A stretch of DNA of 64,000 nucleotides from Candidatus Obscuribacteraceae bacterium (GCA_044226015.1 JBGAHS010000006.1:384001-448000); one strand, 5' to 3'. Counted from the first letter of the stretch, positions 153 to 20,375 are shown. Numbers and translations are program-made. The notes: generated by a model not told the origin, from the letters alone.

Positions 153-1598
153 ATGACAAAGCTACGAGAAAGACTATTTCAAGATGGCAGCGAATCATCG
201 CCCGCAGCAAAATCTGAGGCGCAAAGTTCAGCAACAAAGCGCCCAGCGGCGGTGAAGAATCAAGCGCTCTCCCTTACCGGTGCATTCAGTGCAGCAGGAC
301 CACGCAAAGTATCAGACAGCTACACTGTCTTGAAGCGACGAATTCACCACCGCCTGGTTGAGAGCATAGACATTAGCAGATTGATTCAGCTAGAGGGAAA
401 TCCCGAACTCGAATCAGCAATATCTGAAACTATTGCAGAGATCATTTCAGAAGAGTCACTTCCTCTGAGTCAGGACGAGCTTAACAACCTGGCGCAAGAC
501 GTCTTGCACGAAACACTCGGACTGGGTCCGCTAGAGCCATTGCTCGCCGACCCAGAAATCAACGACATTCTTGTAAATGGACATGAGAGCGTATGGGTTG
601 ATCGCAACGGTGTTCTGCAAGAAACAGACATCAAGTTCAGCAGCCAGGACCATCTCTTGCACGTCATCAACAGAATAGTTGCTAGAGTGGGCAGACGTGT
701 TGACGAGTCATCACCAATCGTTGACGCACGCTTGCAGGACGGCTCACGTGTAAACGCAATCATTCCGCCGTTGTCCCTGGATGGTCCTGTTCTCTCTATA
801 AGACGTTTTCGAGCACAGCCATTTCACATGGAAGATCTTATTGAGCGGACAGCTCTCAATGAGCAGATGGCAGCTTTCTTGAAACTAGCTGTAGCATCCA
901 GATTGAACGTGCTCATCTCTGGTGGCACATCAGCTGGAAAGACAACACTTCTGAACGTTCTTTCTGAAAGCATTTCGCATCGCGAGAGAATTGTCACCAT
1001 AGAAGATACCGCTGAATTGCGTTTGCAGCAGAAGCATGTAATTCGCCTGGAGTCGCGCCCAGCTAACATTGAAGGCACTGGTGCCATCGCACAAAGAGAG
1101 CTAGTTAAAAATGCACTCAGAATGCGTCCCGATAGAATTATCGTGGGTGAGGTTCGAGGCGGCGAGTGCTTGGACATGCTTCAAGCAATGAACACCGGAC
1201 ACGACGGCTCACTATCTACGGTGCACGCAAATTCGCCTCGGGATGCTCTATCTAGAATTGAAACACTGGTTCTTCTAGCTGGAGTTGAACTCAGCCAACA
1301 GAGTATCAGAGAACAAATCGCCAGCGCATTTGACCTCGTAATTCAAATTAAGCGCATGCCAGACGGTGTCAGAAAAATAAGCTCAATAGCAGAAGTAACC
1401 GGCGTGCATGAAGGTGTAATCAGCCTTCAGGAATTGTACAAATTCAGGCACGATGGTACCGATGGCGAAGGCAAAGTGCTGGGCAAACATATAGCCTGTG
1501 GCTTGCGCCCGATGTACCAGGACAAATTTGAAGAAGCAGGCGTCAAGTTAGAGACATGGATGTTCAATAACGAAGAATCGGAGGAAGCGCAAAGCTAA
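153..1598 (+). CDS. cpaF: Tad/Flp pilus assembly ATPase (CpaF/TadA)
   Basis: Walker A GGTSAGKT, TIEDTAEL, LRMRPDRIIVGEVRG, AMNTGHDGSLSTVHANS; followed by tadB/tadC. Confidence 0.95.
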   Translation: MTKLRERLFQDGSESSPAAKSEAQSSATKRPAAVKNQALSLTGAFSAAGPRKVSDSYTVLKRRIHHRLVESIDISRLIQLEGNPELESAISETIAEIISEESLPLSQDELNNLAQDVLHETLGLGPLEPLLADPEINDILVNGHESVWVDRNGVLQETDIKFSSQDHLLHVINRIVARVGRRVDESSPIVDARLQDGSRVNAIIPPLSLDGPVLSIRRFRAQPFHMEDLIERTALNEQMAAFLKLAVASRLNVLISGGTSAGKTTLLNVLSESISHRERIVTIEDTAELRLQQKHVIRLESRPANIEGTGAIAQRELVKNALRMRPDRIIVGEVRGGECLDMLQAMNTGHDGSLSTVHANSPRDALSRIETLVLLAGVELSQQSIREQIASAFDLVIQIKRMPDGVRKISSIAEVTGVHEGVISLQELYKFRHDGTDGEGKVLGKHIACGLRPMYQDKFEEAGVKLETWMFNNEESEEAQS

Positions 1599-2539
1599 TG
1601 ACGGCTACAATCGCGATTCCGATAATCATAGCAGTGCTCGCCATTGTGGCTTTGAGTCTTGTTTTGACCCGCGTTGTCGTTGCAAAGCGTAATCGCGATG
1701 CTATGCGCATGCGACTCGAATCAATGATTGCTCTACCTGAGCAGAAGGAAGAACAATCGCTAGTCAAAGAGAACAAAGCCCACTTTGAACTGCCCTTCCT
1801 TGCAGAACTAGAACGTCTGCATCAATTGGCTGGCTTCAAGTCTGACTTTTCGCAGACGCTGCAAATCGTTTTATTTGGCACCGCTATAATTGCATGCTTA
1901 CCGTTTGCGCTCGACTTGCCAGCAGCGCCCTGCCTTGTGTTGGCGTTAATGCTGCCTGTCATAGCTTTTGTTGTTCTCAAATACAAAGCCGAAGCCGGCA
2001 GAACCAAGTTTCAGATGCAACTTCCAAACGCGCTGGACCTGATGGTATCAATTTTGCGCAGCGGTCACAGTATACCGATGGCGGTTCGTTCTGTGGCTCA
2101 AGAAAGTCCAGCCCCGTTAGGTGATGAATTCATCATCATATTCCACCGCATGAATTTGGGGCAAAGCCTTCCAGAAGCGCTTGAAACTTCGGTCAAAAAG
2201 TACGACTCTTTCGAGCTTGACCTTTTGCGCAGAGCCTCCGCGCTCAACCTTGAAGTTGGTGGCAGCCTGGCAGAAGTACTAGACAAAACGAACCACACAC
2301 TTCGCGAACGCATCAATTTGAAAAATCAAATTGGAGTTTTAACGGCACAAGGAAAATTATCAGCCATCATCTGCGGAATGCTACCAATTGTGGTGGCGGT
2401 AATTTTCAGCCAAATAAACCCTAACTACCTTGAGCCGCTGACGCAAAACATTACCGGACAAATTATGATCGCAGCAGCAGTGGGGCTTGAACTAGTTGGC
2501 TTCTTCGCAATGTACAAACTATCGTCCTTCAGGATATAA
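1598..2539 (+). CDS. tadB: Tad inner-membrane protein TadB (T2SSF family)
   Basis: N-terminal TM, QLPNALDLMVSILRSGHS, GGSLAEVL, LTAQGKLSA; coupled to cpaF. Confidence 0.9.
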   Translation: MTATIAIPIIIAVLAIVALSLVLTRVVVAKRNRDAMRMRLESMIALPEQKEEQSLVKENKAHFELPFLAELERLHQLAGFKSDFSQTLQIVLFGTAIIACLPFALDLPAAPCLVLALMLPVIAFVVLKYKAEAGRTKFQMQLPNALDLMVSILRSGHSIPMAVRSVAQESPAPLGDEFIIIFHRMNLGQSLPEALETSVKKYDSFELDLLRRASALNLEVGGSLAEVLDKTNHTLRERINLKNQIGVLTAQGKLSAIICGMLPIVVAVIFSQINPNYLEPLTQNITGQIMIAAAVGLELVGFFAMYKLSSFRI

Positions 2540-2541
2540 GC

Positions 2542-3297
2542 ATGCCAGAACTTGTTATGAAGAAAATTGATTTCAGCGAAATTGCGTTGTCGGCACTGCA
2601 GGTTCTTCCATCAGGCTATAAACTGATGCTGCAAAAGTACCTGGCGTTTGCCGGATGGTCAGCTCCAGAAGATTATGCCAATCTGGCAGCATGGAAGCTA
2701 TACCCTTGTTTGTTAGTGACGGCATTGATTCTTCTGCTACCCAGCAATCTGGTATCACCTGCGGTGGTGGCTCCCGCCATGTTTGTGCTGTTCTTTGTGC
2801 CAGATCTTGTGATCATTCAGAAATCAAAATTGAGACAGTCAGAGATATCTTCATCGCTTCCGCAGGCGATCGATATCATGCTCTTAGGTGTGAATGCAGG
2901 CTTGAGCCTCGATGCGACACTTCAACGCCTCGCCAGCGACCGCTCGTCAGTTTCCAATGCGTTAAATGTTGAGCTCTCTCGATTGGGAAGAGACATTCTG
3001 CTGGGCATCGACAGGGAAGTTGCATACACGGCACTTTACGAACGAACTGGAGTGGAAGAACTGAAGTCATTCGGTGCAGCACTCAATCAAAGTAGCAAGA
3101 TGGGCTTAAGCGTCGCCAGAGTCTTGCAGGCTCAAAGTGAATTCATCAGATTACGACAGAAACAAAAGGCACAAGAGAAAGCCGCAAAGCTGCCCATATG
3201 GATGGCTTTTCCACTCTGGCTCTGCATCATGCCTTCACTCTTGCTGATTTTGCTGGGACCTTCGCTGCTGGCATTCTTCCAACAGCTGGCAAAGTAA
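2542..3297 (+). CDS. tadC: Tad inner-membrane protein TadC (T2SSF family)
   Basis: LPQAIDIMLLGVNAGLSLD, AQEKAAKLPIWMAFPL; follows tadB. Confidence 0.88.
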   Translation: MPELVMKKIDFSEIALSALQVLPSGYKLMLQKYLAFAGWSAPEDYANLAAWKLYPCLLVTALILLLPSNLVSPAVVAPAMFVLFFVPDLVIIQKSKLRQSEISSSLPQAIDIMLLGVNAGLSLDATLQRLASDRSSVSNALNVELSRLGRDILLGIDREVAYTALYERTGVEELKSFGAALNQSSKMGLSVARVLQAQSEFIRLRQKQKAQEKAAKLPIWMAFPLWLCIMPSLLLILLGPSLLAFFQQLAK

Positions 3298-3538: not shown

Positions 3539-3837
3539 CAATGAAGTCGGACTCTCTTCTGGAAGTGAGGCATGAAAGGCTCAGGATCCGAAACAAACCG
3601 GGCTCAATACCGCACCCAGACCCAGCACTTAGACTGGTCATGGCCGAAATCAGCCACCAACTCAAACCAGAGAACTCATGACATCCACATAATCTTGGGT
3701 CAGCCTAAAGTTAGCCCGAAAAGTCCTGCTATAGCTGGAACGAGCGCCTCCAAAAGAACGAGTGTTACAGCAGATTCACGCAATTAATTGCCAACAGGTT
3801 TTAGCCTCTGGCTACCGTGGTAATATGAATTAGCTAT

Positions 3838-3909
<72 letters not shown>

Positions 3910-3934
3910 TTTTTTCTTTTTGAATTGTCTAGCA

Positions 3935-3968
3935 AGACTTTTCGCGGTTGCGAAAGGTCTATTTTATT
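3935..3968 (+). terminator. Intrinsic terminator after tRNA-Asn, supplied by the element
   Basis: agacttttcgc-ggtt-gcgaaaggtct hairpin followed by attttatt. Confidence 0.65.
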
Positions 3969-3997
3969 GCCAAAATAGGCAGCGAAAATTTATGCAA

Positions 3998-4015
3998 ATA
4001 CTCCAATGATACTCC
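3998..4015 (+). promoter_or_regulatory. Putative integrase arm-type sites (left end)
   Basis: atactcc twice at 11-bp spacing; atgatactcc recurs at 13749-13758 near attR. Confidence 0.55.
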
Positions 4016-4905
4016 GGGGAAACTTAAATATGAAAGTTGAACAAAGGGACCCCTGCATCAATTGCAATTGTTGCCATGGCTATCAAGTCGCCAGAGACGA
4101 GCAAGGAGAACCATTACATGTAGGCAGCCAGATAATTCCTAATTGGGAAATTGATCTCGTGCGAGAATGTTTTACTAGAGATGGACGCCCCCTTGTCATA
4201 AAGATCGCAAAGAGTAATAAGGACAGAGAGATCCTCCTTAAGAATTGGAATGAGATTTTTCCTGACACAGATTCAACATTAGGCGTCATAGATCAATACA
4301 CGCGAAAAGCGAACGAAGCGTATCCGTATATTTGCTTTGCATCCATCAAGGGGAGAGCTGTTGGAAAACTATTTTTAGAGAGAAACTCAAACAACTCCAT
4401 GCGACGAGAACTTCAGGCTGCAATCATCGACAATGTCCAAGTGGACATAAACCATGAAGGTAACGGAATTTGCACCGAGATGCTTGCATTCGTGGAAGAA
4501 CTAGCAAGAAAAAACAAAATTGCATGGTTAGAGATCGGTGCTCGAAGAGTTGAGGATAATGAGGACCAAGGGCATCTCAGAAGGGGTTTAGACTCACTTC
4601 GAATTTACATCAAACGTGGCTACACAAAACATCCAGTGATACCCACAAGATCGCTCCTTATTCATAACTTAATTTCGATCGACAAAAAAAGTCGCAGCGC
4701 AGCCTGGTTGAAGAATTCCCCTCAACAAAACCAGGACAATATAAGCTTCACTATCACTCATCCCCGGTATGACTCAAGATCTCTGGTTGTCTACAAGAAT
4801 TTGCTTGAGCAGGACGAGAACGTGATGGACCAGCAGACGGTTCTCGCTCTGTTTAGAGAACTCACTGCAGATGTCCCACAGATCGACGACACCACCACAA
4901 ATTGA
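4006..4905 (+). CDS. GNAT-family N-acetyltransferase (element cargo); start may be 4030
   Basis: Acetyl-CoA motif A VQVDINHEGNGICTEMLAFVEELARK, later IYIKRGY; Cys-rich N-terminus CINCNCCH. Confidence 0.7.
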   Translation: MILRGNLNMKVEQRDPCINCNCCHGYQVARDEQGEPLHVGSQIIPNWEIDLVRECFTRDGRPLVIKIAKSNKDREILLKNWNEIFPDTDSTLGVIDQYTRKANEAYPYICFASIKGRAVGKLFLERNSNNSMRRELQAAIIDNVQVDINHEGNGICTEMLAFVEELARKNKIAWLEIGARRVEDNEDQGHLRRGLDSLRIYIKRGYTKHPVIPTRSLLIHNLISIDKKSRSAAWLKNSPQQNQDNISFTITHPRYDSRSLVVYKNLLEQDENVMDQQTVLALFRELTADVPQIDDTTTN

Positions 4906-4980
4906 CACGCTGACACAGCGTTAGAAGAGCAACTAGAAGCGGGCACAACTTTAACGCAAGTTGATTGAATACAAGTTGAG

Positions 4981-5748
4981 TTGAATGTGCACGCACCCGA
5001 AATTCCTCAAAAAAAGCGATTAGTCGCCTACTACCGTGTCTCTTCAGAATCACAAGAAGAGAACAATAGTATCGACTTGCAGAAGCGCAAAATAAGTTGG
5101 GCTGCAGATAACTACGGTTTCGAGATCATCGCAAACATCGAAGCTGTCGAAAGCGCGACATGCCAAAGTGATGATCGTAAGCACTTCAAGGAAGCACTGG
5201 AGATAATCAGATCAGCCAATTGCGATGGCTTGATCGTCAATGATCTTGATCGTTTCTTTCGCAATACGGAAGAAGGCTTGAGGATTGCCAGGAAGGAGTT
5301 TCTTGAAAGTGGCAAGACGCTCATCACCTTGAATCAAAATATAGACATCAGCACTGATGACGGCTGGTTTATGTTTGGCGTAATGCTTCTATTTGCAGAG
5401 AAAGAAGCAAAAACAAATCGATACCGAATGCGCGAGGGGAAGAGGTCTAAATCGAGAGCGAATAAAGCAGCCTACCTTAATGGAGCCACGCCGTATGGCT
5501 ATAAATCAGCCGGACCAAGCGGTAAGCGTTATTTGCAAATCGATCCAAAAGAATATCCATGGCGCGAAAAAATATTCTCCTGGCGCAGCGAAGGACGTTC
5601 ATACAAATGGATCGCACAAGAACTAAACACAAACGGTGTGAAAACAAAACGCGGTCGACAATGGCGAGACACCACAGTCAGGATCATCCTGATTCGTCCG
5701 TTAGCCCTCCAGGAAGCTCTGCCTCAAATACCGCCTGAAATAGCATGA
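4981..5748 (+). CDS. Serine recombinase A (catalytic domain plus short recombinase DNA-binding domain)
   Basis: YYRVSS catalytic Ser, DLDRFFRN, GATPYGY, SYKWIAQELN..GVKTKRGRQW. Confidence 0.92.
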   Translation: MNVHAPEIPQKKRLVAYYRVSSESQEENNSIDLQKRKISWAADNYGFEIIANIEAVESATCQSDDRKHFKEALEIIRSANCDGLIVNDLDRFFRNTEEGLRIARKEFLESGKTLITLNQNIDISTDDGWFMFGVMLLFAEKEAKTNRYRMREGKRSKSRANKAAYLNGATPYGYKSAGPSGKRYLQIDPKEYPWREKIFSWRSEGRSYKWIAQELNTNGVKTKRGRQWRDTTVRIILIRPLALQEALPQIPPEIA

Positions 5749-5972
5749 ACCAGAAACATCTAACTCTGATAGTTAATAATGTTCTGCTGGCGGGTCCTTT
5801 CAGTTCAGCGGGTTGGTCATTTGAGTACAGGGTAATCAAAATTGCAGACAAGGATGGAATGCCCTTTGCAGAAATACAAGAGCGTTTCCAGCTAGAACGA
5901 AATTGGACACACTGCATGTTCATACCGTGGGAGATCTGGCAGCAAATCAATTCAAAAGGCGAAGCTAGATGA
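5745..5972 (+). CDS. Small hypothetical protein between the two serine recombinases
   Basis: 75 aa; ATGA overlaps with both neighbours. Confidence 0.65.
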   Translation: MNQKHLTLIVNNVLLAGPFSSAGWSFEYRVIKIADKDGMPFAEIQERFQLERNWTHCMFIPWEIWQQINSKGEAR

Positions 5973-6718
5973 GCATGAAAAAGTTCATCGCCTTCTACAG
6001 AGTATCTAGTAATTCGCAAGAAGAAAACACAAGCCTGGAAATTCAAAAAGCGCGAATTAACTCTTGGGCAAAAGCGTGCAACCATCAGATTGTTCACGAG
6101 GTGGAAGCAGTTGAATCTGCCACGCGAACCATAGAGAGGCGGAAACTTTTCAAGCACGCGCTCGAACTCATGGATTCAAGTAACTGTGATGGCTTAATTG
6201 TTTACGACCTGGATCGTTTTTTTAGAAACGCGGAAGAGGGCTTGCGATGTGCTCGCATCAACTTTCTCGAACAAGGCAGAGTCTTATTGAGCTTAAATCA
6301 GAACATCGACATCAGCACACATGACGGCTGGTTTACTTTTGGAATATTTCTGCTTGTAGCCGAGAAGGAAGCCCGCACGATGCGTCGCAGAGTGACGGAA
6401 GGCAAATTACATAAAGCCGCCTCATCACTATGCGAAGGACGAAAAGCCTACATCGACGGAGCGCTACCATTTGGTTTCTCTTCATCGGGCGTGAGTGGCA
6501 GGCGTGAATTAGAGATCGACCCTTCAGAGTACCCCTGGCGTCAAAAGATCTTCGCCTGGCGCGCCGAGGGTCGTTCTTACAAATGGATCGCGCGCGAGCT
6601 GAACAGCAGGGGCGTAAAAACTAAGCGCGGGTTGGAGTGGCGTGATACCACGATACGACTAATGCTTGTGAGACCCATGGCTCTTCATGAGCTGATGAAC
6701 CAGGCGATCTCAAGTTAA
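5969..6718 (+). CDS. Serine recombinase B (paralogue of A)
   Basis: FYRVSS, DLDRFFRN, GALPFGF, SYKWIARELN..GVKTKRGLEW. Confidence 0.92.
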   Translation: MSMKKFIAFYRVSSNSQEENTSLEIQKARINSWAKACNHQIVHEVEAVESATRTIERRKLFKHALELMDSSNCDGLIVYDLDRFFRNAEEGLRCARINFLEQGRVLLSLNQNIDISTHDGWFTFGIFLLVAEKEARTMRRRVTEGKLHKAASSLCEGRKAYIDGALPFGFSSSGVSGRRELEIDPSEYPWRQKIFAWRAEGRSYKWIARELNSRGVKTKRGLEWRDTTIRLMLVRPMALHELMNQAISS

Positions 6719-7113
6719 AGTTGCAATGAGCGCTTCAAGTCAGACTCAAGACACGAAATCTGCTTCAACAGCCGGACTAGATAAGCGATATCTTTATTAG
6801 TACGCAATACAGAGTCTTTGTCTAGCCTTTGCCTAACTTCGACATGCACTCTATGCAGCACTTTCAAAGTTTCAAGCTTGCATCGTGTAGTGTCGCCAAC
6901 CTCAGCAATTAGTGTTTCAGTTCGCGTGGCACGGTAAGCGATACGCTTTAATCGCCAATCTTCGCTCTTGCACCATTGCTCGACCTCACCTTTCGAAACC
7001 CCAAGCTGTTGCGCAATCAGCCCAAAGCGCGGCTTTTTCATGGCAACATACATGTTCAAGGCTGTCTCTCGCACAGGAACTATTTCAGCAAGATTATTCA
7101 CGCCCATTTCCAT
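6715..7113 (-). CDS. HTH protein resembling terminase small subunit N-termini (Terminase_5/DUF1804-like)
   Basis: ALNMY..IAQQLGVSKGEVEQWCKSEDW..R pattern followed by a helical region. Confidence 0.5.
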   Translation of the reverse strand: MEMGVNNLAEIVPVRETALNMYVAMKKPRFGLIAQQLGVSKGEVEQWCKSEDWRLKRIAYRATRTETLIAEVGDTTRCKLETLKVLHRVHVEVRQRLDKDSVLRTNKDIAYLVRLLKQISCLESDLKRSLQL

Positions 7114-7321
7114 TCTCTTTCATAGCAAGAGCCTTCTCTGTGAGCTTAGCCAGCCTGAAAATCGTGTTTGCCGATTTTGCGAGAATATGAAGCTCGGCAT
7201 TGTTCTGAATATCGCTATCTAGCTTAGCTCTAGCCGCATCCAATCTAACCTCTATTTCTCGGAGAACAGCATCAGCTGCATCAATAGCTTCATCCCGAAA
7301 TTCATTTTTTATCGTTCTCAT
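7094..7321 (-). CDS. Hypothetical helical protein
   Basis: 75 aa; overlaps the downstream TerS-like gene on the same strand. Confidence 0.5.
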   Translation of the reverse strand: MRTIKNEFRDEAIDAADAVLREIEVRLDAARAKLDSDIQNNAELHILAKSANTIFRLAKLTEKALAMKENGNGRE

Positions 7322-7414
7322 TTCAATTTCTCTTTTACGGAATCTCTTTATGACTTTATCTGAAAACGAATCATTGTTGAAGACTTAACATCGTAATGCG
7401 TCTTACTGCAAACA

Positions 7415-7493
7415 TGGCGCCAGCGAAAAAAAATATCGCCATTGCAAAACATTTCTTTTCACGGTCTCTGTGGCGCTCTGGCGCTATGGCGCT
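7415..7493. repeat. Iteron-like tggcgc cluster
   Basis: Tandem octamers tggcgctc-tggcgcta-tggcgctg from 7471, plus atggcgcc and atcgccat, in A/T-tract context. Confidence 0.55.
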
Positions 7494-8104
7494 GACTTTT
7501 TCTAATAGACAAAAATAGGAGATTTGAACTATAGAAAGAGCATCCTTTGCGTTTTTTTTCCTGGGATTTTAATTGGCACGGGGATATTGCGGGCGGAAAA
7601 CGCCCGCTGCACGGAGGACCCTTCACTCGATTCCCCGCCCCTTGGCAGCCGGAAGCGCCCGCTGGGCGGTGCCCCCGAGATCCCCCGCCCCTTGATTCCA
7701 GGGCGCTCCAAGCTATCTACTATCACGCGAAATTGCTCGTCCCTCCCCGTCGTTGCTGGGTTTCCAGGTCTTGACACAGCTGAATTGACACGTCGTTCTA
7801 ACAGCGTGTTAGCGCGAGGTATGCCCCGCCCGCCGCACGCATACGCCTGCTGCGTTAATTAATCCCATAACGCCATAGTCTCTCCGCCCAGGCACCGTGG
7901 GCGGTACCACCATTAAGTACACTCAACATGGCGAATTGTATTTTTTACTTCGTCATCTCCCTCTCTCATGAACATTGCGGACAACGTTAGGAGCGAAGAT
8001 ATACAACACACTACGGTGCTTACCACGCTGTACACTGTTAAGTCTTGCTTCTTGGCGATCAATGCAGTTCACTGAAATTGCATAGGTTACAAAGGAATTC
8101 ATCA

Positions 8105-8656
8105 ATGAAGGAATCAATAAGCAAACTACTTCTCAGTGAAACAGAAGTGACAGAAAAGTATGGATTGACTTCGCAATGGCTTAGGCGTGCGCGAATGGCT
8201 GGTGTTGATCACGGTCCACCATTCATCAAACTCGGCAGCAGGATTTTTTATCAAGAATCGCTGATCGATAAATACCTGCAGGACAATCTGCATACTTCAG
8301 GCGCTTGCGGTAAAGAAGAATCCAGCCGGATTGATCGAGTATTGAGCCAGCCTTTTTGTACACTCGGATTGAGTATGCCGTTAAGAACTGACTTGCAGTC
8401 CTTAGAAACCAAAGAAGGGATGCTTTTCAGCTGTGATGTGGATTACAACAAAGACTATTTGACCACAGCTCACATATACAGATTCAATGGTGCGCTCGTG
8501 GTATCAGTAGATTCAGAAAAGCTAGCATCTGAATATCCCAAATGTTTCGGACAGATCATTGCGCTCATGAATGGAAAACTAAAAGACCTTCTAAAAAGCA
8601 ATAGCCTGAATAAGCGTTTTGAAAATGTTGGTGAGATTAGCGCCATAGCGCCATAA
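8105..8656 (+). CDS. AlpA/Xis-like winged-HTH protein with C-terminal extension
   Basis: LLSETEVTEKYGLTSQWLRRARM..GPPFIKLGSRIFY; ATG at 8105 within ORF 8045-8656. Confidence 0.7.
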   Translation: MKESISKLLLSETEVTEKYGLTSQWLRRARMAGVDHGPPFIKLGSRIFYQESLIDKYLQDNLHTSGACGKEESSRIDRVLSQPFCTLGLSMPLRTDLQSLETKEGMLFSCDVDYNKDYLTTAHIYRFNGALVVSVDSEKLASEYPKCFGQIIALMNGKLKDLLKSNSLNKRFENVGEISAIAP

Positions 8657-8851
8657 ATTCTGAAAGCGGTCTGGAGCAAGAGCTTTCCAGTGAATGATGC
8701 TATCGCCATATTGCGTCGTTCAGTTGTTACGGAAAAAACAGGCTTGTCATATAGAGCAATTAACCGGTTACAGACATGTCGCAGCCGGATAACTTATGTG
8801 GATATCAGGCGTGACTTGGTCACCCCAGCAAATGCTAAAAAGGACAAAACA

Positions 8852-9064
8852 ATGACGCAAGATAACTCAGATCTGATGAGCAGACCGGAAGCAGCCAAAT
8901 ATTTAGGTGTAAAAATTGCAACGCTTGAAGATTGGGCTTGTAGAGGACGTTATGGCATTCCATATACAAAGATTGGGCGCTTGGCGAAATACCGAAAATC
9001 TGATCTTGATGCCTTTATTGAAAGTCGCACCGTTAATGGTGCCAGTGAAGAAGATGCAAATTAG
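8852..9064 (+). CDS. Excisionase-like HTH_17 protein
   Basis: LMSRPEAAKYLGVKIATLEDW..IPYTKIGRLAKYRKSDLDAFIE; aagga RBS before ATG 8852. Confidence 0.85.
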   Translation: MTQDNSDLMSRPEAAKYLGVKIATLEDWACRGRYGIPYTKIGRLAKYRKSDLDAFIESRTVNGASEEDAN

Positions 9065-9917
9065 TCAATTGAAGAATCTAAAAGCTACCTCAACAGGATT
9101 CATCGCCTCCTGCCCTGCGCACGACGACAAAAAACCATCGCTATCTATTGATAGTAGAAACGGAAAGCTTTTAGTTTATTGCCACGCCGGATGTCCGCAA
9201 GATCGCGTGATGGAACTGCTGGATTCTGATGTAATCGGCAAGCACTTAGCGAACAAACCCGATTCCGCGATTGCGGACGAAAAGAAAAGAGAAGCCATTC
9301 GCCGGGTATGGGAGGAAGCGAAGCCAATCAAGACTTCGGATCTTGCCGCAACGTACTTGAGAAACCGAGGCATCAACCTCATGGAGTTTCCCGAATCGTT
9401 AAGATTTCATCCATCAGTAAAAGCCAAAGTAGATGAAGTGTTTATGTCATTTCCAGCGATGCTAGCTCGATTTGACGATAGCAACGGAGCAATGATTCAA
9501 GTTCATAGGACGCTCCTAAGCGCAGATGGCAGAAAGGCAAATATAGAATCTCCGAAGCGCATGATGAGTTCGCCGTCAGGCAACAACACCAGAGGCGGCG
9601 CCATAAGGCTGTTTCCCGCTGGTCGCCAATTGGGAATAGCAGAGGGAATTGAATCAGCCCTGGCGTGCAATTTAGCGACATCAATCCCAGTATGGAGCTG
9701 CTACTCAGCGACATGCATGGAATCCGTTGTCATTCCGGATGCGGTAGAAGAATTGTATGTGTTCGCCGATCACGATTCAGCAGGAACCAAAAGTGCGCGC
9801 GCAGTCGCCACTCGGTTAGCGAGGCAAAAGTTAAAGGTAAAAGTGTTAGTCCCGCCCACGCTTGGGCAGGATTGGCTCGATGTATGGAATGCTCACAATG
9901 ACATATCAAATGAATGA
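9054..9917 (+). CDS. Zn-finger/Toprim DNA primase (satellite/plasmid type)
   Basis: CPAHDD..PSLSI..CHAGC zinc finger, YLRNRGI, VHRTLL, IAEGIESAL, FADHD Toprim motifs. Confidence 0.88.
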   Translation: MQISQLKNLKATSTGFIASCPAHDDKKPSLSIDSRNGKLLVYCHAGCPQDRVMELLDSDVIGKHLANKPDSAIADEKKREAIRRVWEEAKPIKTSDLAATYLRNRGINLMEFPESLRFHPSVKAKVDEVFMSFPAMLARFDDSNGAMIQVHRTLLSADGRKANIESPKRMMSSPSGNNTRGGAIRLFPAGRQLGIAEGIESALACNLATSIPVWSCYSATCMESVVIPDAVEELYVFADHDSAGTKSARAVATRLARQKLKVKVLVPPTLGQDWLDVWNAHNDISNE

Positions 9918-11457
9918 GATCATGCAAGCGGTACATAGCACACCGTTTTTTGATCCTGACGCCAAAGACGAAAACAAAAACAAAAGCACAGAAAGATCTA
10001 ACAAAAAAGCAGGAGAGATTCTTATCGACTGCACCACGTCGTGGGAAACCTGGAGATGCCCCTTAGGAAAAAGCTTTGTGAGTTTTGAGGCGAATGGACA
10101 TATCGAGCACCACGGAGTGCGCGACAACACCACGGCGCTAAAGCTCCAGCTTGAATATTACAAGAGCACCGGAACTGCGGCGAAGAAGTCTAATATTGAT
10201 GAATGCCTGGACAATCTCGAAGCTAAAGCGCTATTTGAAAACAGAGTTTATAGGACTGCGATTAGAGTCGCAGAATGGGAAGGCTCGATATATCATGACC
10301 TGGGCAACGACAAATGGGAAGCGATTAAAATAACTGCAGACGGTTATAACCTCGTTGATTCAAAGGAATTATCACAAACAGGATTTCGCTTTTTGCGCAA
10401 GCAGGCAATGCTTCCTCTGCCCTATCCACAAGAAGCGAGTACAAATCTGCAAGAGCTTTTTGCCATCTGCGGAATTCAAGATCAAGCAAATCAAATCCTG
10501 TTGAGTGGAATTCTAATTCAAGGTATCAATCCGAACGGACCGTATCCAATTTGCGTGATCCGAGGTACACAAGGGACGGGTAAATCGACTTTATCACGAA
10601 TGATTCGCCGTATTATTGATCCGAATCAAGCGGAAATCCGCTCTCTACCAAATGAAGAAGATCACTTTGGAATTCAATGCGAAAACAGTCATTTTTCTGT
10701 GTTCGACAACGTAAGTACACAGGACCTTCCGAGATGGTTTTATGATACGTGCTGCCGCCTAGCCACAGGCGCTGGTGCTAGCAAGCGCGCACTGTATAAA
10801 AATAACGACGAGGTTATCCGCAACATCTGTCGCCCTCTACTGATAAACGGAATAGATGATATGGTTGCCAGAGGCGACTTTCTAGAACGCGCCGTCATCA
10901 TCGAACTCAAACCTATTGATCCAGGTCGAAGAAAAACTCAAAGAGAAATCGAGGAAGCATTCGGAGAAGCTCATCCTCGGCTTTTGGGCGCTTTGTATCA
11001 TTTAACCTCCAGTGCACTCGCCAACAGAAATAAAGTCAGACTGAAAGAACTTCCAAGAATGGCTGACTTCTGCCAATGGATAACTGCATGTGAAGACGCC
11101 CTTCAATGGGAGCCAGGAACATTTGCAAGGACTTTGAAAGCGAACAGCCTGGATATGAATGACCTGGCGCTTGAATCATCTTCATTGGGATCTGCAATTA
11201 GGAAGGCTCTGCCTCTCGGAATTGAATCAACGAAAGATGCGGATCTCGAATACAAGAGCGCCAATGAAATTTTGAAAGTGCTAAGTAGATATAATGAAGA
11301 TCCAAACGACAGGACATTTCCTAAAACAGGCGCTGCTTTAAGCCGTCAGCTTAAAAGACTCGTTCCGCTGTTGAACCACGAGGGTTATGAGGTCGAGTTT
11401 CATAGAAAAGAGACAAATCTCAGACCTTTATCTATCCGGAGGATGAAGACCGAGTAG
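9910..11457 (+). CDS. P-loop ATPase, SF3-like replicative helicase
   Basis: Walker A GTQGTGKS, Walker B SVFDNV, RALY, LINGI, DFLERA; coupled to the primase. Confidence 0.8.
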   Translation: MNEIMQAVHSTPFFDPDAKDENKNKSTERSNKKAGEILIDCTTSWETWRCPLGKSFVSFEANGHIEHHGVRDNTTALKLQLEYYKSTGTAAKKSNIDECLDNLEAKALFENRVYRTAIRVAEWEGSIYHDLGNDKWEAIKITADGYNLVDSKELSQTGFRFLRKQAMLPLPYPQEASTNLQELFAICGIQDQANQILLSGILIQGINPNGPYPICVIRGTQGTGKSTLSRMIRRIIDPNQAEIRSLPNEEDHFGIQCENSHFSVFDNVSTQDLPRWFYDTCCRLATGAGASKRALYKNNDEVIRNICRPLLINGIDDMVARGDFLERAVIIELKPIDPGRRKTQREIEEAFGEAHPRLLGALYHLTSSALANRNKVRLKELPRMADFCQWITACEDALQWEPGTFARTLKANSLDMNDLALESSSLGSAIRKALPLGIESTKDADLEYKSANEILKVLSRYNEDPNDRTFPKTGAALSRQLKRLVPLLNHEGYEVEFHRKETNLRPLSIRRMKTE

Positions 11458-11461
11458 GCGT

Positions 11462-12160
11462 CTATCTTGGTTCGAGAACGGATCGGACTCTTTCGTAGGC
11501 ACGATCAACGTCCAAAGACTCCAACGAGATCATCAGCTTAAAATCAGGAGACTTTAATAGCTCAGCAAGGCTCTCAATAATATGAGCAGAATCATTTTCC
11601 TGGGCAAGAGCAAGCAATTTCAATAAAACTGCGAGGCACTTTGTGAATACTCCATTAATTGAATTTTTTACCTCCTGCTCCACGCTTGCAAAATATGTAC
11701 GCAAATCAGAAGCTATGAAATGTTCTGCCTCTCTTGATTGTCTTCCGCGCTTAGTAGGTACACGATCAAGGGCTAATTCGCAGATCCTATTGGTTGTAAT
11801 CAATAACTCCTCTGTATGATCCAATAGGCACCGCCCTTGGTGCCAGTCTGGTATTAGAATATCCATTATCGAACTTTCTAAAATGGTGCGACTTGAAGGA
11901 CTCAGTTCCTGTAAAGAATTTAGCGCAGCTTCAATGGATTTACTGAGAATCGCAAGTTGCTTTCTGCTCTCGTTTACTGTACCAATCTCCGCAGCCTTTA
12001 TGAACATACCTGCAAGGACTTTCGGTAGGTCGCGGCGTTGTGCTTCTGTGAGAAGCAAACCACAATCAGTAGCCCAAACGCCAGCCACAATGCCGAACAA
12101 TTCTTCGATATCGCCTCCATATATTTCTAAGATCCATTCAGTTGGAGGCAAATTTGCCAT
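11462..12160 (-). CDS. Hypothetical protein
   Basis: 232-aa ORF inside the element; KRGRQ basic patch; no family recognised. Confidence 0.6.
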   Translation of the reverse strand: MANLPPTEWILEIYGGDIEELFGIVAGVWATDCGLLLTEAQRRDLPKVLAGMFIKAAEIGTVNESRKQLAILSKSIEAALNSLQELSPSSRTILESSIMDILIPDWHQGRCLLDHTEELLITTNRICELALDRVPTKRGRQSREAEHFIASDLRTYFASVEQEVKNSINGVFTKCLAVLLKLLALAQENDSAHIIESLAELLKSPDFKLMISLESLDVDRAYERVRSVLEPR

Positions 12161-12288
12161 AAGCTTTGCGGTTCCTGCGCGTAGAGATTATCAAGAAATG
12201 CGTAATGTAAAACGCCACTTGAGGAAGTATTGTTTTAGCACTTTTTTGCGTGTTTTATCAACAATAAGCGCCAGTAACAGGAGGGATT

Positions 12289-12498
12289 ATGGAAAGAAAT
12301 TCAAAGAAGCTTCTGACCGAAATTGAGGTGGAAATCACGTATGGAATCACGCGCCATTGGTTGCGAAGAAAACGAGTGGAAGGCGGCGGACCAGAATTCT
12401 TCAAGATCGGAAGGAATGTCCGTTACTCAGCCGAAAAAATCGAAGCTTTCATATCTGGAAGCCAGCAAAGCTCAACAAGCGCATTTTCTCAGCGCTAG
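12289..12498 (+). CDS. AlpA/excisionase-like HTH protein
   Basis: LLTEIEVEITYGITRHWLRRKRVEGGGPEFFKIGRNVRY; ggagg RBS; convergent with the integrase. Confidence 0.85.
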   Translation: MERNSKKLLTEIEVEITYGITRHWLRRKRVEGGGPEFFKIGRNVRYSAEKIEAFISGSQQSSTSAFSQR

Positions 12499-13799
12499 CA
12501 TTCTGATGTTTCAACTTTCGAAAGAATGAAATTAGTGATCCTTTCCATCGGTACTCTGAGTCGCTCGATGTCAGAGACTATATAACCAGCCGTGACATCA
12601 TTGCTAGTACTATGATTCAAAAGACGCTTAAGAGGATATCCCTGAATATCGAGAGCTTCAGCAACAGTAGCAAACGTCCGGCGAAGGTCATGGCAAGTAA
12701 ATTCAATACCAGTCTTTCTCGTAACCTCCATCATGGGTTTTCTTGGATCAACCAGATGACCTGATGCGCCATCGCCCGGAAAGACGAACGTTGATGAGCT
12801 TTCCTTCTTAATTTCAAGAAGGAAATTCGAAACATGAGGGGTAAGAGGTAGCGTATGGACAGAGCCATTCTTGGTGTCAGTTACTGTAAGCGTGGCTGAC
12901 TTAAAATCAATATCTTTCCATTGAAGCGCCGAAGCCTCTTCTTTGCGTAGCCCAGTAAACAAAAGCAACTTCAAATAATTTCTCACTATCATATTCTCAA
13001 GCGTCTCTACGGCATCATGCCATGGCTTCAGCTCATGAGCCTTCAGTACAGTCTGCCTTCGAGGAATTTTATTCCAAGCCTTGATTTGAGATATTCTGCT
13101 AACGGGGTTGATGCTGATTTGCAAATCCGAATCATCAAATTTATGTTGAGCGTAATTAAATAACGCACGCAAGATGCGCATGACTTGATTTGCTTGTGCC
13201 TTCCCATTCCAATCACTACTTCGTCTTTTAAGTCCTGTATTGCCAAGATCCTTGAAGCGTCGCTCAATCATATCTTTGGAAATCTCAGTTATTGGTCGGT
13301 CCATCCAATCAGACACGCAACGATTTAGAATCTTCAGATATCCACGTTTCGTCGATTCCTTGAGGCTTGAGCGATCTGCAAGGTAGTTTTCCAAAACGAA
13401 ACGGAGAGTCGCAGATCTCCGAGACTGAACTATTCTTTCCTGCCGCAACGATTCTTTAGCGACTGCATTTGGGTCAATTCCTTTTGCGAAATCCCCGAGA
13501 GTTCTTAATGCGAGTTCTCTCGCTTGATGGTGGGTGATGCTGCCCAACTTGCCCAGGCTGACCCGAATTACCTTACGACTCCCTTTGATACGTCCCTGTT
13601 GAAAAAACATCGCACCAGTAGGAGTGACACGTACCCCAAACCCTGACGGTTCACCTAAAAAGTGATAACCAGGCTGGGAGAGCAGCGCATCAATTGTCTT
13701 TTTTGTGATCTTGGGCATGACTGGAGTATCCATGAAACTTACACTCATATGATACTCCATTTTCGGATAAGTCTTGCCTTGTTTCACTAAAACATGCAC
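12495..13799 (-). CDS. int: P4-like tyrosine integrase with N-terminal arm-binding domain (true start probably 13718-13733)
   Basis: GFGVRVTPTG arm domain; catalytic FTGLRKEE, TKNG, HDLRRT, LLNH, TAGY; adjacent to att. Confidence 0.95.
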   Translation of the reverse strand: MHVLVKQGKTYPKMEYHMSVSFMDTPVMPKITKKTIDALLSQPGYHFLGEPSGFGVRVTPTGAMFFQQGRIKGSRKVIRVSLGKLGSITHHQARELALRTLGDFAKGIDPNAVAKESLRQERIVQSRRSATLRFVLENYLADRSSLKESTKRGYLKILNRCVSDWMDRPITEISKDMIERRFKDLGNTGLKRRSSDWNGKAQANQVMRILRALFNYAQHKFDDSDLQISINPVSRISQIKAWNKIPRRQTVLKAHELKPWHDAVETLENMIVRNYLKLLLFTGLRKEEASALQWKDIDFKSATLTVTDTKNGSVHTLPLTPHVSNFLLEIKKESSSTFVFPGDGASGHLVDPRKPMMEVTRKTGIEFTCHDLRRTFATVAEALDIQGYPLKRLLNHSTSNDVTAGYIVSDIERLRVPMERITNFILSKVETSEC

Positions 13800-13838
13800 A
13801 ATTCAATCCATCCGCATAAGCTTACCCTTGCAGGCTTT

Positions 13839-13878
13839 ACCGAATCTTGCCAAAACCGACCAGACTTCACCAAATCTT
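13839..13878 (+). repeat. Four 10-bp phased imperfect repeats next to attR
   Basis: accgaatctt-gccaaaaccg-accagacttc-accaaatctt. Confidence 0.5.
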
Positions 13879-13899
13879 AGAATCAACGTTGCCCATATA

Positions 13900-13945
13900 A
13901 CTGTTAATCACTTGGTCGCTGGTTCGAATCCAGCCTCGGGAGCCA
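13900..13945 (+). repeat. attR: displaced tRNA-Asn 3' fragment ending in CCA
   Basis: 43-bp identity with 3867-3909, then CCA; no tRNA 5' half. Confidence 0.95.
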
Positions 13946-14091
13946 TTTTTCAGCGATTGGTTAATCGCAAAATCGAATAAAGTGACCTATAGATGACCGC
14001 CGAATATAAATTGGTGGTTTTTCTTTTTGCTGCTTTTAACGCGGAATGAATTCTGCCGATTTATGTTCGTCATGATGCCCCTTTCTTTCTC

Positions 14092-15114
14092 TCAATTTGT
14101 GTGAGGCTGCGAGCAGAACATTTGGTAGTATTCGGCCCACTTTGACTTTGTCATTTGCCAATCCGAATAAATGCAAATTCCTTGGTAACAATTAGGCGGC
14201 TTTTCACCAAGTCCAGCGTTGATCCCGCGCAGTGAATGAAATAGGTTTTCCGTATTTGGGTCATGATATCCAGCACCTGCATCATCATATGCTGGCAGAC
14301 CCAGCAGCACCTGCTTCGGGCTGTACCAGGCTAGAACATCATGTGTCCAATCTTTCATTTGTTGCTCGTACAGACCTGGAGAACGCAGTGATGTGTCATA
14401 CATCATTACTACTGCTTGATCGATAAGAGCAGCAACACTGCGTGAGTAGGATTCATCCCAGTGCACATCAGCATTCTGCTGCCAGAAAGTTGGTGGTGGG
14501 TACGCTGCAATAGATATTAGCTTACCTTCTGGTATCTGATTTCGAAGTTCTTGCAGCAGCAGCAAATAATCATTATTTCCTGAGCGTAGCGGTTCAATAT
14601 TTACGTGAATGCCAGCCAATCTTGGATGTTTTTCTAAAATACTTGCACATGACTTTGCAAATGCTTTTCTCCAGCGGTCATCATGCAAAAAAACGGTTTG
14701 CTTGTTCACACCACCGACCCAAGGCATTACTTGAAATCCCTGGAAGTTGTCTAAGAATCGTTCAACTTGAGTATCGTTGGAACAGGCAATCTGTCCAGCT
14801 TTAGCAGCGGGGCAAAGATGTGGAAACACATACTTTATGTGCGCATTTCTCAGTCGATCAGATGTTTCCTTCAACATATCTGCATCACGAAATGTTCTTG
14901 ACTCTTTTTTGTTTTCTATAAACCATGTATCGTCCCCCAGCCACCCATGTTGCATCCAGAGTCCATTAGCCATGCGGTCATACCGCCCGTCACGAACATC
15001 AAGTCCAGGTGACCAGAAGAAATAAACCAATGAAGCCAGAATCGCCAAAACACACAGTAACACACAGTGAGTTAACCAATTTTGAAAGTATTTTCTGCTT
15101 GTATCGGTGTGCAC
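14092..15114 (-). CDS. Membrane-anchored glycoside hydrolase family 18-like protein
   Basis: GIHVNIEP variant of DxDxE, VMMYD, LLGLPAY; N-terminal TM; GTG at 15114 with GGAGG RBS. Confidence 0.65.
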   Translation of the reverse strand: MHTDTSRKYFQNWLTHCVLLCVLAILASLVYFFWSPGLDVRDGRYDRMANGLWMQHGWLGDDTWFIENKKESRTFRDADMLKETSDRLRNAHIKYVFPHLCPAAKAGQIACSNDTQVERFLDNFQGFQVMPWVGGVNKQTVFLHDDRWRKAFAKSCASILEKHPRLAGIHVNIEPLRSGNNDYLLLLQELRNQIPEGKLISIAAYPPPTFWQQNADVHWDESYSRSVAALIDQAVVMMYDTSLRSPGLYEQQMKDWTHDVLAWYSPKQVLLGLPAYDDAGAGYHDPNTENLFHSLRGINAGLGEKPPNCYQGICIYSDWQMTKSKWAEYYQMFCSQPHTN

Positions 15115-15445
15115 TGCGAATGCCCCTCCCAACCGCCATATTACTATTATTCTCGAATGAAAGCGTGCCGGTACATGAAATGCCAATGGTAATCTCTTCG
15201 AGCCAATCATCACCAGAGCGTGAGCGAGCATTACCAGAGAGTTGTACGAAGGACAACCGATAGGTAATGCAGATATCGTGTTGAGTGTCAATAGCCCAAG
15301 ATCGGGGACAGCAGAGGCACGCGACGTTTTTCATCGTCAGTTGCCTTCCATACGCAATCAGCGCTATTGTTTCTAGAGGTGATCCCAATGCGGCCGCGAG
15401 CGCTGATCCCTCCTAGAAGGAATTAAGCGCCAAGCTCCACTCAGC

Positions 15446-16394
15446 TCAAGCGGAGACTATGTCGTCGCGGAAAGGCGTTCCAGACTTAAGTACGCCAAAT
15501 ATAATGTGCAAAAGCTTTCTCATAGAGGCTCCAACGGCCTTCATTGGAACCTTTCCATTCGCGATTAGGTTTCGATAAAATCGCGCAATGACGGGATTGT
15601 GATCTTTGCCACTATCGCCGGCAGAAGAAAGAGTGCTGAACGCAATCAGCATTTCCTGTTTTTGGATAGTCGAGTTCGTCCACGGATGGAGCTGCCAGAT
15701 CTGATTTCGCTGGGGCTGAACCTGCAAATGCCACCAGTTGTTTGGCATTCTCAAACAATTCAGTGAAGGAACTTCAGTGAGAATCACGTTTGCTGTTTCC
15801 TCACCAACTGCTGGAATAGACATGATCGGTTTCCGCTTCTGCTGCAGGTCGGATGCTTTTTGTAAAGCCTTTCAATTTGTCTTCAATTCGACCGATTTCT
15901 AGATCAGCACTTGAGGATGCGGTTCACCGAATCCATGTCAGCATGGTTTGCTTTCTCTGTTGATAAGCGGTTCTCTCCGCAACCCCTGAGCGCGTTAGAT
16001 CGTAGAGCGCCTCACCAGCATTTGTAATTGACGCACTTCGGGAGCTGGTGGGTGCCGCAGCTTTAGTTCATTGTTTAGCGCCGTCTGAGTACCCCAGCAT
16101 CGACTTTGTCTGTTTTGGTTCCTTCCAGCTCCTCTGAGCAAATCGCCTGATACCGTCAAGTTCGGCAGCTAACAGACTCGCCTGCCAGTGAAAGAGAAAA
16201 ATCAGCGAGGTCATATAATACGCACCCGGTGGCTTCCTGCAGAACAATGCGTTCTCAACTCCGATTTTTTGCAACCAGCGCAAGCCCTGGAAGCCTTTTT
16301 CGGTTTGTGAAACTGATGGTGTTTCTCTTTCCCTGTCACCTCCACGACGCTCGAAATCTTTCGAGATGTCGATTCCAACAAAACAGTCGAACAT
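15446..16394 (-). pseudogene. IS110 DEDD transposase, frameshifted as assembled
   Basis: GIDISKD; C-terminal HNPVIARFY..MRKLLHIIFGVLK spread over several frames. Confidence 0.8.
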
Positions 16395-16439
16395 GCAATC
16401 CCTCTTCATTCTGATTTTCTAGTTATAAGACGCATGGTA

Positions 16440-19412: not shown

Positions 19413-20375
19413 TCAAGCGAAGACTAGGTCGTCGCGGAAAGGCGTTCCAGACTTAAGTACGCCAAATATAATGTGCAAAAGCTTTCTCATAGAGGCTCCA
19501 ACGGCCTTCATTGGAACCTTTCCATTCGCGATTAGGTTTCGATAAAATCGCGCAATGACGGGATTGTGATCTTTTGCCACTATCGCCGCAGAAAAGTGCT
19601 GAACGCAATCTAGCATTTCCTGTTTTGGATAGTCGAGTTCGTCCACGGATGGAGCTGCCAGATCTGATTTTCTTTGCGGGAACTGGGACACGAAATGCCG
19701 CCAGTTGGGGCAAATTTCTCCGGCAATTCCAGTGGAACTTCAGTGAAAATCCCGCGTTTGCTGTTTCTCACCAACTGCTGGAATAGACATGATCAGTTTC
19801 CGCTTCTGCTGCAGGTCCGGATGCTTTTTGTAAAGCCTTCAATTTGTCTTCGAATTCGACCGATTTCGATCTAAACGCCAGGATGCGGTTCACCGAATCC
19901 ATGTCGCATGGTTTGCTTTTCTCTGTTGATAAGCCAGTTCTCTCCTGGCGCCCTAATTTTGTTGAGATCGTAGAGGGCGCCTCACCAGCATTGTAATTGA
20001 CGCACTTCGGGAGCTGGTGGGTGCCACTGCGCTGGATTCATTGTTCTTGCCAAATGGAAATTGCCCCAGCATCGACTTTGTCTGTTTTGGTTCGCTTCAG
20101 CTCACTCTGAGCAAATCGCCTGATACTGAGTCGGATTCACGACGCTAACAGACTCGCCTGCCAGTGAAGAAAAATCGAGTCATACCAATACGCACCGGTG
20201 GCTTCCATGCAGAACAGTGCGTTCCTCAGCCTCGATTTTTTTGCAACCAGCGCAAAGAAGCCCTGGAAGCCTTTTTCGGTTTGTGAAAACTGATGGTGTT
20301 TCTCTTTCCCTGTCACCTCCACGAAACATCAAAGAAATCTTTCGAGATGTCGATTCCAACAAAACAGTCGAACAT
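19413..20375 (-). pseudogene. IS110 DEDD transposase, frameshifted as assembled
   Basis: RuvC-like D/E/DD and Tnp-domain serine motifs split by multiple indels. Confidence 0.8.

Follow-up and report, generated by a model that had tools for sequence, protein, structure and literature searches.

Paired short serine recombinases in a satellite-like island at tRNA-Asn: a candidate accessory resolvase from a family with recurrent gene arrays

Why would a small integrated element that already encodes a tyrosine integrase carry two further recombinases of the serine family, coupled to each other through a small gene? The question is raised by a 64,000-nucleotide stretch of a Candidatus Obscuribacteraceae bacterium (GCA_044226015.1, JBGAHS010000006.1:384001-448000; hereafter the window, with all positions counted from its first letter). 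Short serine recombinase A lies at 4981-5748 on the plus strand and encodes 255 aa from a TTG codon. Its likely start is the GTG at 4987, which is also the start of the database protein P0002, the 253-aa product of the same gene. Its paralogue B (5969-6718, plus strand) encodes 249 aa and is 60% identical to A. Between them is a 75-aa orphan ORF (5745-5972, plus strand), and the three ORFs are coupled by ATGA overlaps at 5745-5748 (A and the 75-aa ORF) and 5969-5972 (the 75-aa ORF and B). The original prediction had described two paralogues of about 250 aa with their catalytic motifs, joined to the middle ORF by overlaps on both sides and lacking a zinc ribbon and coiled coil. The arrangement is as described, and the Y-R-V-S-S and D-L-D-R-F-F-R-N motifs are intact in both proteins.

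The absence of the two domains is also borne out. Pfam searches placed the Resolvase domain PF00239 in both A and B (E 3e-24 and 8e-20, respectively), followed by Recombinase, PF07508, at model positions 2-52 of 102 only (E 6e-10 and 2e-9), and returned no zinc-ribbon match in either protein. The layout is therefore a catalytic domain followed by the winged-helix half of the Recombinase domain, with the proteins ending at about 250 aa. An AlphaFold model of B, built from a 9-row alignment, had a pLDDT of 82.5. Its best structural matches were the serine-integrase cryo-EM complexes 9dxd and 9dxf and that of Bxb1, 9iu2, with TM-scores over the query of 0.60-0.64, and B is about half the length of the matched integrase chains. 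Together the profiles and the model indicate that each protein consists of a catalytic domain and the first DNA-binding domain and has neither a zinc ribbon nor a coiled coil. The C-terminal DNA-binding segments of A and B share 40 of 54 residues (74%; 37/47 in their core) and are more conserved than the catalytic core (69/114), although "near-identical", as they were first called, is too strong a term. The recognition helices read WRDTTVR and WRDTTIR in the two paralogues.

This anatomy places A and B between established groups. Like the large serine integrases (SPbeta, Bxb1, phiC31), which match them best over the N-terminal 250 residues in both structure and profile searches, they have an N-terminal Resolvase catalytic domain with an intact serine motif. 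Unlike them, A and B are half as long and lack DBD2/zinc ribbon and coiled coil, and the att sites present are those of a tyrosine integrase. With the small serine resolvases (Tn3/gamma-delta and the SSRs of pipolins and tycheposons) they share the order of catalytic domain first and DNA-binding domain last, and the setting of an accessory gene beside a separate integrase, with a single candidate site in each replicon, adjacent to the recombinase gene itself. They differ from Tn3/gamma-delta in their DNA-binding domain, which is the winged-helix half of the Recombinase domain of large integrases and gives no HTH_7 (PF02796) match, in the lack of any three-part res site that we could find, and in the tandem duplication of the gene. 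TIGER classes are described as splitting serine enzymes by the presence of the Recombinase domain (PMC12424338, PMC12884075), and the half-domain form of A and B falls between its two serine classes. To judge from domain content, A and B are built like half of a large serine integrase without being one; their predicted function is most like that of a plasmid-type resolvase, yet their domains are not those of the Tn3 family. IS607 TnpA was considered and rejected, as the catalytic domain starts at residue 7-15 with no N-terminal HTH, and NF033518 scored 28-32 bits against 110. None of the 13 island ORFs matched TnpB.

The two genes have been separate for a long time. Synonymous sites between A and B are saturated throughout (pS 0.87 overall, range 0.77-0.93), and dN, at 0.32 overall, falls to 0.14-0.18 in the DNA-binding domain/winged helix, which is the most conserved part of the pair. 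Saturated synonymous sites with low dN argue that the duplication is old and that both copies are under purifying selection; the similarity of the C-termini is not accounted for by recent gene conversion. No asymmetry of rate between A and B was detected with any of five outgroups (chi2 0-3.1), and so relaxed selection on one paralogue, which the original prediction had named as a sign against the module, was not seen for either gene. By these substitution patterns, A and B are intact, long-diverged tandem duplicates, both maintained by purifying selection.

The module lies in an island of about 10 kb between identical 43-bp repeats, starting in a tRNA-Asn(GTT) gene (3837-3910, plus strand) that is the integration target. 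The attL core is at 3867-3909 and the attR core, 100% identical to it, at 13900-13942, both on the plus strand. Near the right end is a tyrosine integrase with an Arm DNA-binding domain (12495-13799, minus strand; PF00589 E 2e-15, PF13356 E 7e-10). Given the tRNA att repeats and this integrase, the A/B pair is not the island's integrase, in keeping with the earlier view that the tyrosine enzyme explains integration. To the left of A is a GNAT acetyltransferase-like cargo gene (4006-4905, plus strand; PF00583 E 1e-4). Convergent with B is a gene for a terminase-small-subunit-like HTH protein (6715-7113, minus strand), with weak matches to PF10668 (E 0.004) and PHROG terS (E 0.007); a profile search found relatives of it near three other recombinase arrays, the one in L064 matching at E 7e-8. 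Upstream of the terS-like gene is a further 75-aa ORF (7094-7321, minus strand), followed by a divergent control region (7380-8046) with the arms of a 22-bp inverted repeat at its two ends. On the plus strand there then follow an HTH_17/excisionase-like regulator (8045-8656; weak match), an HTH_17 DNA-binding protein (8690-9064; PF12728 E 6e-11), a Toprim primase (8916-9917; DUF7146 and Toprim_3) and a P-loop helicase-like replication protein (9862-11457), which has weak Pfam matches and homologues that adjoin primases in L070 and L107. A 232-aa ORF of no family occupies 11462-12160 on the minus strand. Non-coding DNA at 7580-7710 and 7884-7904 contains a GC-rich stretch, hairpins and a 29-bp two-copy repeat, and is a possible origin or packaging signal.

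Of the traits that mark phage-inducible chromosomal island (PICI)-like elements, the island has an integrase at a tRNA with att repeats, a primase and helicase, small size and no virion genes. It resembles PICI-like satellites and PICI-like tycheposons in its length of about 10 kb, integration at a tRNA 3' end, tyrosine integrase, excisionase-like HTH, primase, helicase and terS-like gene. It departs from them in its host, inferred to belong to the Vampirovibrionia and probably to the Obscuribacterales, in the weakness of the terS match and in the recombinase array found in a variable slot. By its gene content we regard the island as satellite-like. The same genome contains a podophage-like prophage (L002:727-11738, G000:C11) with major head, head-tail adaptor and terminase genes, a tyrosine integrase and one short serine recombinase; this prophage is a possible helper.

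The island seems to have moved recently. Runs X1 and X2 were both flagged as possible sources of the DNA. In X2, an activated-sludge run of 2016 from a study other than that of X1, four contigs cover 3880-13929 with zero differing letters, and the host flanks differ from those of the window at 28/906, 17/283 and 9/88 bases (3-10%), the left-flank alleles differing at full depth. The segment right of the island, 14000-15263, is replaced in X2. The simplest reading is that the whole island was recently transferred; no contig spans the X2 junctions, so that the link of island to strain is inferred. The X2 contigs break at 5922-5944, 11848-11871 and 12529-12554, where they overlap by 23-26 bases only and have no other match in the genome, and we read these breaks as low-coverage gaps.

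The small gene between A and B had been put forward as a recombination directionality factor (RDF). It is probably a real gene. Of 2000 shuffles, 32 preserve an open frame, and the coding score of the ORF, 0.028 against 0.027 for gene B and 0.025 for the GNAT gene, is modest in that 7% of shadow frames score as high. Searches for homologues were negative in a set of 5.8 billion proteins, where the one candidate was the ORF itself, in four profile libraries and in 107 related genomes, and all matches in the Atlas were below 0.8. Eleven matches in other genomes (E 0.005-0.09) fall within long, unrelated frames and were taken to be chance. A single-sequence fold (pLDDT 56) had no viral structure match at E<=0.001. 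A complex prediction of B, A and the 75-aa ORF scored 0.00 with an uncertain partner fold, and counts neither way. The SPbeta integrase binds its RDF through DBD2 and the hinge of the coiled coil (PMC11722253). A and B lack both, so that the RDF reading is left without its target. No counterpart of the ORF occurs in any of the five other recombinase arrays described below; the three-gene unit is thus not conserved, an outcome that the original prediction had named as refuting its reading. Rather than an RDF, the 75-aa ORF is in all likelihood a passenger gene that is coupled in translation. A more likely directionality factor for the island would be the excisionase-like HTH beside the tyrosine integrase (12289-12498, plus strand; PF12728 E 0.003).

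If A and B recombine DNA, where is their site? The best candidate is a res-like 36-bp imperfect palindrome at 4950-4985, just before gene A, with a GA centre at 4967-4968 and 12 of 17 arm positions symmetric. Alone the palindrome is weak, as 10 of 100 shuffles reach it (2 of 30 in another test), and it was found post hoc. It is present in single copy in the 8.2-Mb genome, the next-best match scoring 45/58, a uniqueness that is partly built in because the score was made from the site itself. Nothing comparable precedes gene B (67/100 shuffles), and L004, the closest locus with available DNA and part of an Obscuribacterales MAG (G065) of the same genus as the source genome, has no clear copy of the site. 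Five AGTTG/CAACT copies lie within 4906-4986 (5/2000 shuffles); no clear res sites II or III, nor accessory subsites for a one-way reaction, were found. A promoter scan returned fewer sites than chance. A TGACAC motif shared by 4903-4920 and 7772-7795 was set aside as not significant by alignment (108/500 shuffles); by word counts, the 7-mers shared by these segments were reached in 6/1000 shuffles and the 8-mers in 53/1000.

The candidate has parallels in the wider family. Directly before the recombinase gene of two plasmid members, L134 and L136, lies a near-perfect palindrome of 36 bp around a 2-bp centre, and the 4950-4985 site is likewise 36 bp long with a 2-bp centre. Over 33 family genes, upstream palindromes beat shuffles at p<=0.05 in 7, against 1 of 33 in-gene controls, a lenient control in that it is coding DNA whereas promoter DNA is richer in palindromes; the other 26 upstream regions have no significant palindrome. 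The L134 and L136 palindromes are ready-made substrates for the family.

Close relatives of A and B are rare, at seven proteins besides the pair itself. At E<=1e-10 the wider family has 10,580 representatives, large integrases and ordinary resolvases included, and 117 of the best 150 of these are 200-300 aa long. By this count, short serine recombinases of about 230-260 aa are a large family. Plasmid records matching it number 79, and in all four that we picked from these and opened (L133, 6.9 kb; L134, 5.4 kb; L135, 11 kb; L136, 29 kb) a family member of 228-266 aa is the only annotated recombinase family. The L136 record is an apparent head-to-tail dimer with one recombinase copy per unit. 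The available text of a paper on a Polaromonas plasmid (PMC6015842) does not mention a resolvase. Two scans of viral contigs yielded no relative, and a metagenome scan returned only distant relatives at 25-30% identity (19 loci). A search of the open literature found no experimental test of any family member and no description of the arrays.

We propose, at roughly even odds (a probability of about 0.5), that A and B are an accessory multimer resolvase, with both paralogues acting on the one predicted 36-bp site before gene A. Dimer resolution was among several functions that the original prediction had offered; it stands as the best reading, with recombination itself a prediction. Serine recombinases cleave their site at its two middle bases and recombine by subunit rotation. 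On this proposal the tyrosine integrase would excise the island, which would replicate as a circle, and any island dimers would contain the 4950-4985 site twice. Cleavage at the middle 2 bp by A, B or both, followed by subunit rotation, would then give monomers. Both proteins would recognise the same site through WRDTTVR/WRDTTIR and would act either redundantly or in tetramers that combine A with B; with recognition helices in common, such mixed complexes are likely. Binding at 4950-4985 could also repress the operon, and unit-length circles could help inheritance or packaging. Should the two copies merely be redundant, the pair would be an ordinary accessory resolvase. There is precedent for a small serine recombinase next to a separate integrase: those of pipolins have been read as resolvases (PMC11551731), and the genes listed for tycheposons include others (bioRxiv 2020.12.28.424599). 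At 230-250 aa and with 36-bp sites, enzymes of the present family could serve as compact parts for genome engineering.

Resolution alone does not explain why islands hold two to four copies, some of them dead, and plasmids and prophages one. We surveyed 107 related genomes of the order, 26 of which matched a close-clade profile. The 23 best matches of a broader profile, built partly from the same proteins, resolved into 17 loci, a set that leaves out weaker profile matches, mostly ordinary resolvases and large integrases. Six of the 17 are tandem arrays of two to four copies, some with catalytically dead members. Besides the two intact copies of the window, ATGA-coupled around the 75-aa ORF, these are L061 and L063 (two intact copies each), L062 (three intact and one without the catalytic serine motif), L064 (one intact and one truncated, with one intact and two degenerate on the other strand) and L071 (one intact and one without the catalytic domain). 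The five members without a catalytic serine motif or catalytic domain lie in open frames beside intact copies (L064:7567-7938, 12151-12702 and 12657-13265; L062:9531-10211; L071:10893-11255), and four of them (L062, L064 twice, L071) retain their winged helix, the frames being 120-226 aa long. In three of the five other arrays the intact copies overlap or are separated by gaps of about 25 bp or less. Four of the six arrays are in att-bounded tyrosine-integrase islands with primase and helicase; the other two are beside a tyrosine integrase with less context. The 11 single loci comprise seven of phage type (clear for L002, L065, L067, L068 and L072, by homology for L073, weaker for L066), three satellite-like ones (of which one is frameshifted, another truncated and the third part of a 476-aa frame) and one unclear. 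All 12 cyanobacterial loci examined are single. Among family relatives, P0057, P0060, P0081, P0126, P0137 and P0158 have a catalytic domain followed by several repeated winged-helix units (up to eight matched stretches) and so parallel the gene arrays within one chain.

The arrays arose by independent duplication, several times. In the tree the two copies of G047 are sisters (99/99), as are two of those of G099 (100/94) and P0003/P0004 (100/99), the last not counted as an array, as their adjacency is only suggested, by longest contigs of the same length (25,211). A and B fall in one small clade with P0003-P0006, and the two copies of L061 in one clade without being sisters. Clades based on position in the array were rejected (p-AU 6e-78 for first and 1e-59 for second positions) in an AU test on a quick tree of 27 rows that left out 16 of the 43 rows of a fuller tree. 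The grouping of copies by locus, with this rejection, implies that duplication recurred. The module is also dispensable, as judged from at least three islands, L107, L110 and L116, which have att repeats, a tyrosine integrase, a primase and the same terS-like gene and no such recombinase in the fetched stretch; the terS-like gene of L107 is 91% identical to that of its sister L061, and other cargo fills the slot where L061 has its pair. What is new here is the recurrent arrays with dead members, not the triad.

Repeated duplication in satellites and not in prophages points to a selective reason. Satellites may repeatedly have turned a compact one-gene recombinase into a multi-subunit machine, in which mixed synaptic complexes with dead DNA-binding copies would supply the directionality that normally comes from a coiled coil or accessory sites, or would recombine helper-phage DNA bearing the family site. 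We think this doubtful, if worth stating. If true, it would be a serine-family counterpart of XerC/XerD, independently evolved several times. What sets the direction of a serine recombinase that has no coiled coil, no RDF and no proven accessory sites is a mechanistic question, for which the island is a small testable case with two intact enzymes, one predicted 36-bp site and signs of recent transfer.

The same distribution bears on an unlikely alternative, that A and B target other mobile DNA in trans, fusing with or disturbing, for example, helper prophages that have a single member and its site, with arrays widening the target range. Among non-phage islands 6 of 9 carry an array, against 0 of 7 loci of phage type, a contrast between kin that are not independent and for which we claim no test; the seven phage-type loci of the same order, including prophage L002 of the same genome, carry single members, and island and phage copies are intermixed in the tree. 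The DNA-binding domain also diverges faster than the catalytic core in P0003/P0004 (33/54 against 100/114 identical) and in the G099 copies (19/54 against 70/112). However, P0007 and P0008, for which no array arrangement is known, show the same faster change. The recognition helices of A and B are nearly the same, so that their target range is not widened, neither the host genome nor its prophage holds a second copy of 4950-4985, and PADLOC returned no useful match.

We consider it quite unlikely that A and B are invertases that flip the control region (7380-7401/8025-8046) or the recombinase operon itself (4932-4955/6715-6741). A prophage serine recombinase, PinQ, is reported to invert DNA for phage defence (PMC12529663), and the 22-bp control-region repeat, with 18 of 22 positions matched, was reached by 0 of 40 shuffles. 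That repeat is nevertheless unlike the 4950-4985 candidate site. The imperfect repeat flanking the operon was reached by 8 of 200 shuffles, but it was one of 32 tests, and 0 of 15 other loci had such a repeat at p<0.05. The X1 and X2 contigs run unbroken through all four repeat arms in one orientation, bearing in mind that contigs drop rare variants.

That A and B are now mainly DNA-binding regulators or architectural factors, with recombination secondary, strikes us as improbable. The five array members elsewhere that have lost the catalytic serine motif or domain, four with their winged helix, the conservation of the DNA-binding domain between A and B, and the position of 4950-4985 over the expected promoter region are consistent with it; yet A and B keep every catalytic motif, and dN is low across the core despite saturated dS.

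Paralogous serine recombinase genes also lie side by side as CcrA/CcrB of SCCmec, in the triplets of Streptococcus ICEs and in girABC with girX of the Bacillus gin element. RDFs are often orphans, as the 75-aa ORF is, and this probably real small gene is tightly ATGA-coupled between the recombinases. An integrase/excisionase pair of the CcrA/CcrB or GirC/GirX kind, moving the module or the island with the 75-aa ORF as its RDF, is still highly improbable, even with girABC + girX as an existing multi-recombinase element with a small RDF (PMC5595907): A and B have no zinc ribbon or coiled coil and are short next to CcrA/B profiles of 442-542 positions, against which they score 48-75 bits (NCBIfam cut-offs 700-900), the ORF is missing from the five other arrays, no att-like direct repeats flank the module, and array copies cluster by locus, some beside dead members, unlike the streptococcal triplets, described as serine integrases, which cluster by gene position (PMC4701971). 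A fixed A/B pairing of the CcrA/CcrB kind is contradicted by the tree and by the profile scores. A self-mobile recombinase cassette was dropped, as no direct repeats flank 16 loci.

Around the island, inspection by eye identified Tad/Flp pilus-like genes (an ATPase and two membrane proteins) at 153-3297, directly left of the tRNA, and fragmented IS110-like transposase copies to the right at 15446-16409 and 19413-19874. Elsewhere in the host genome, 18 tRNA genes are densely arrayed at G000:C10:356333-358584.
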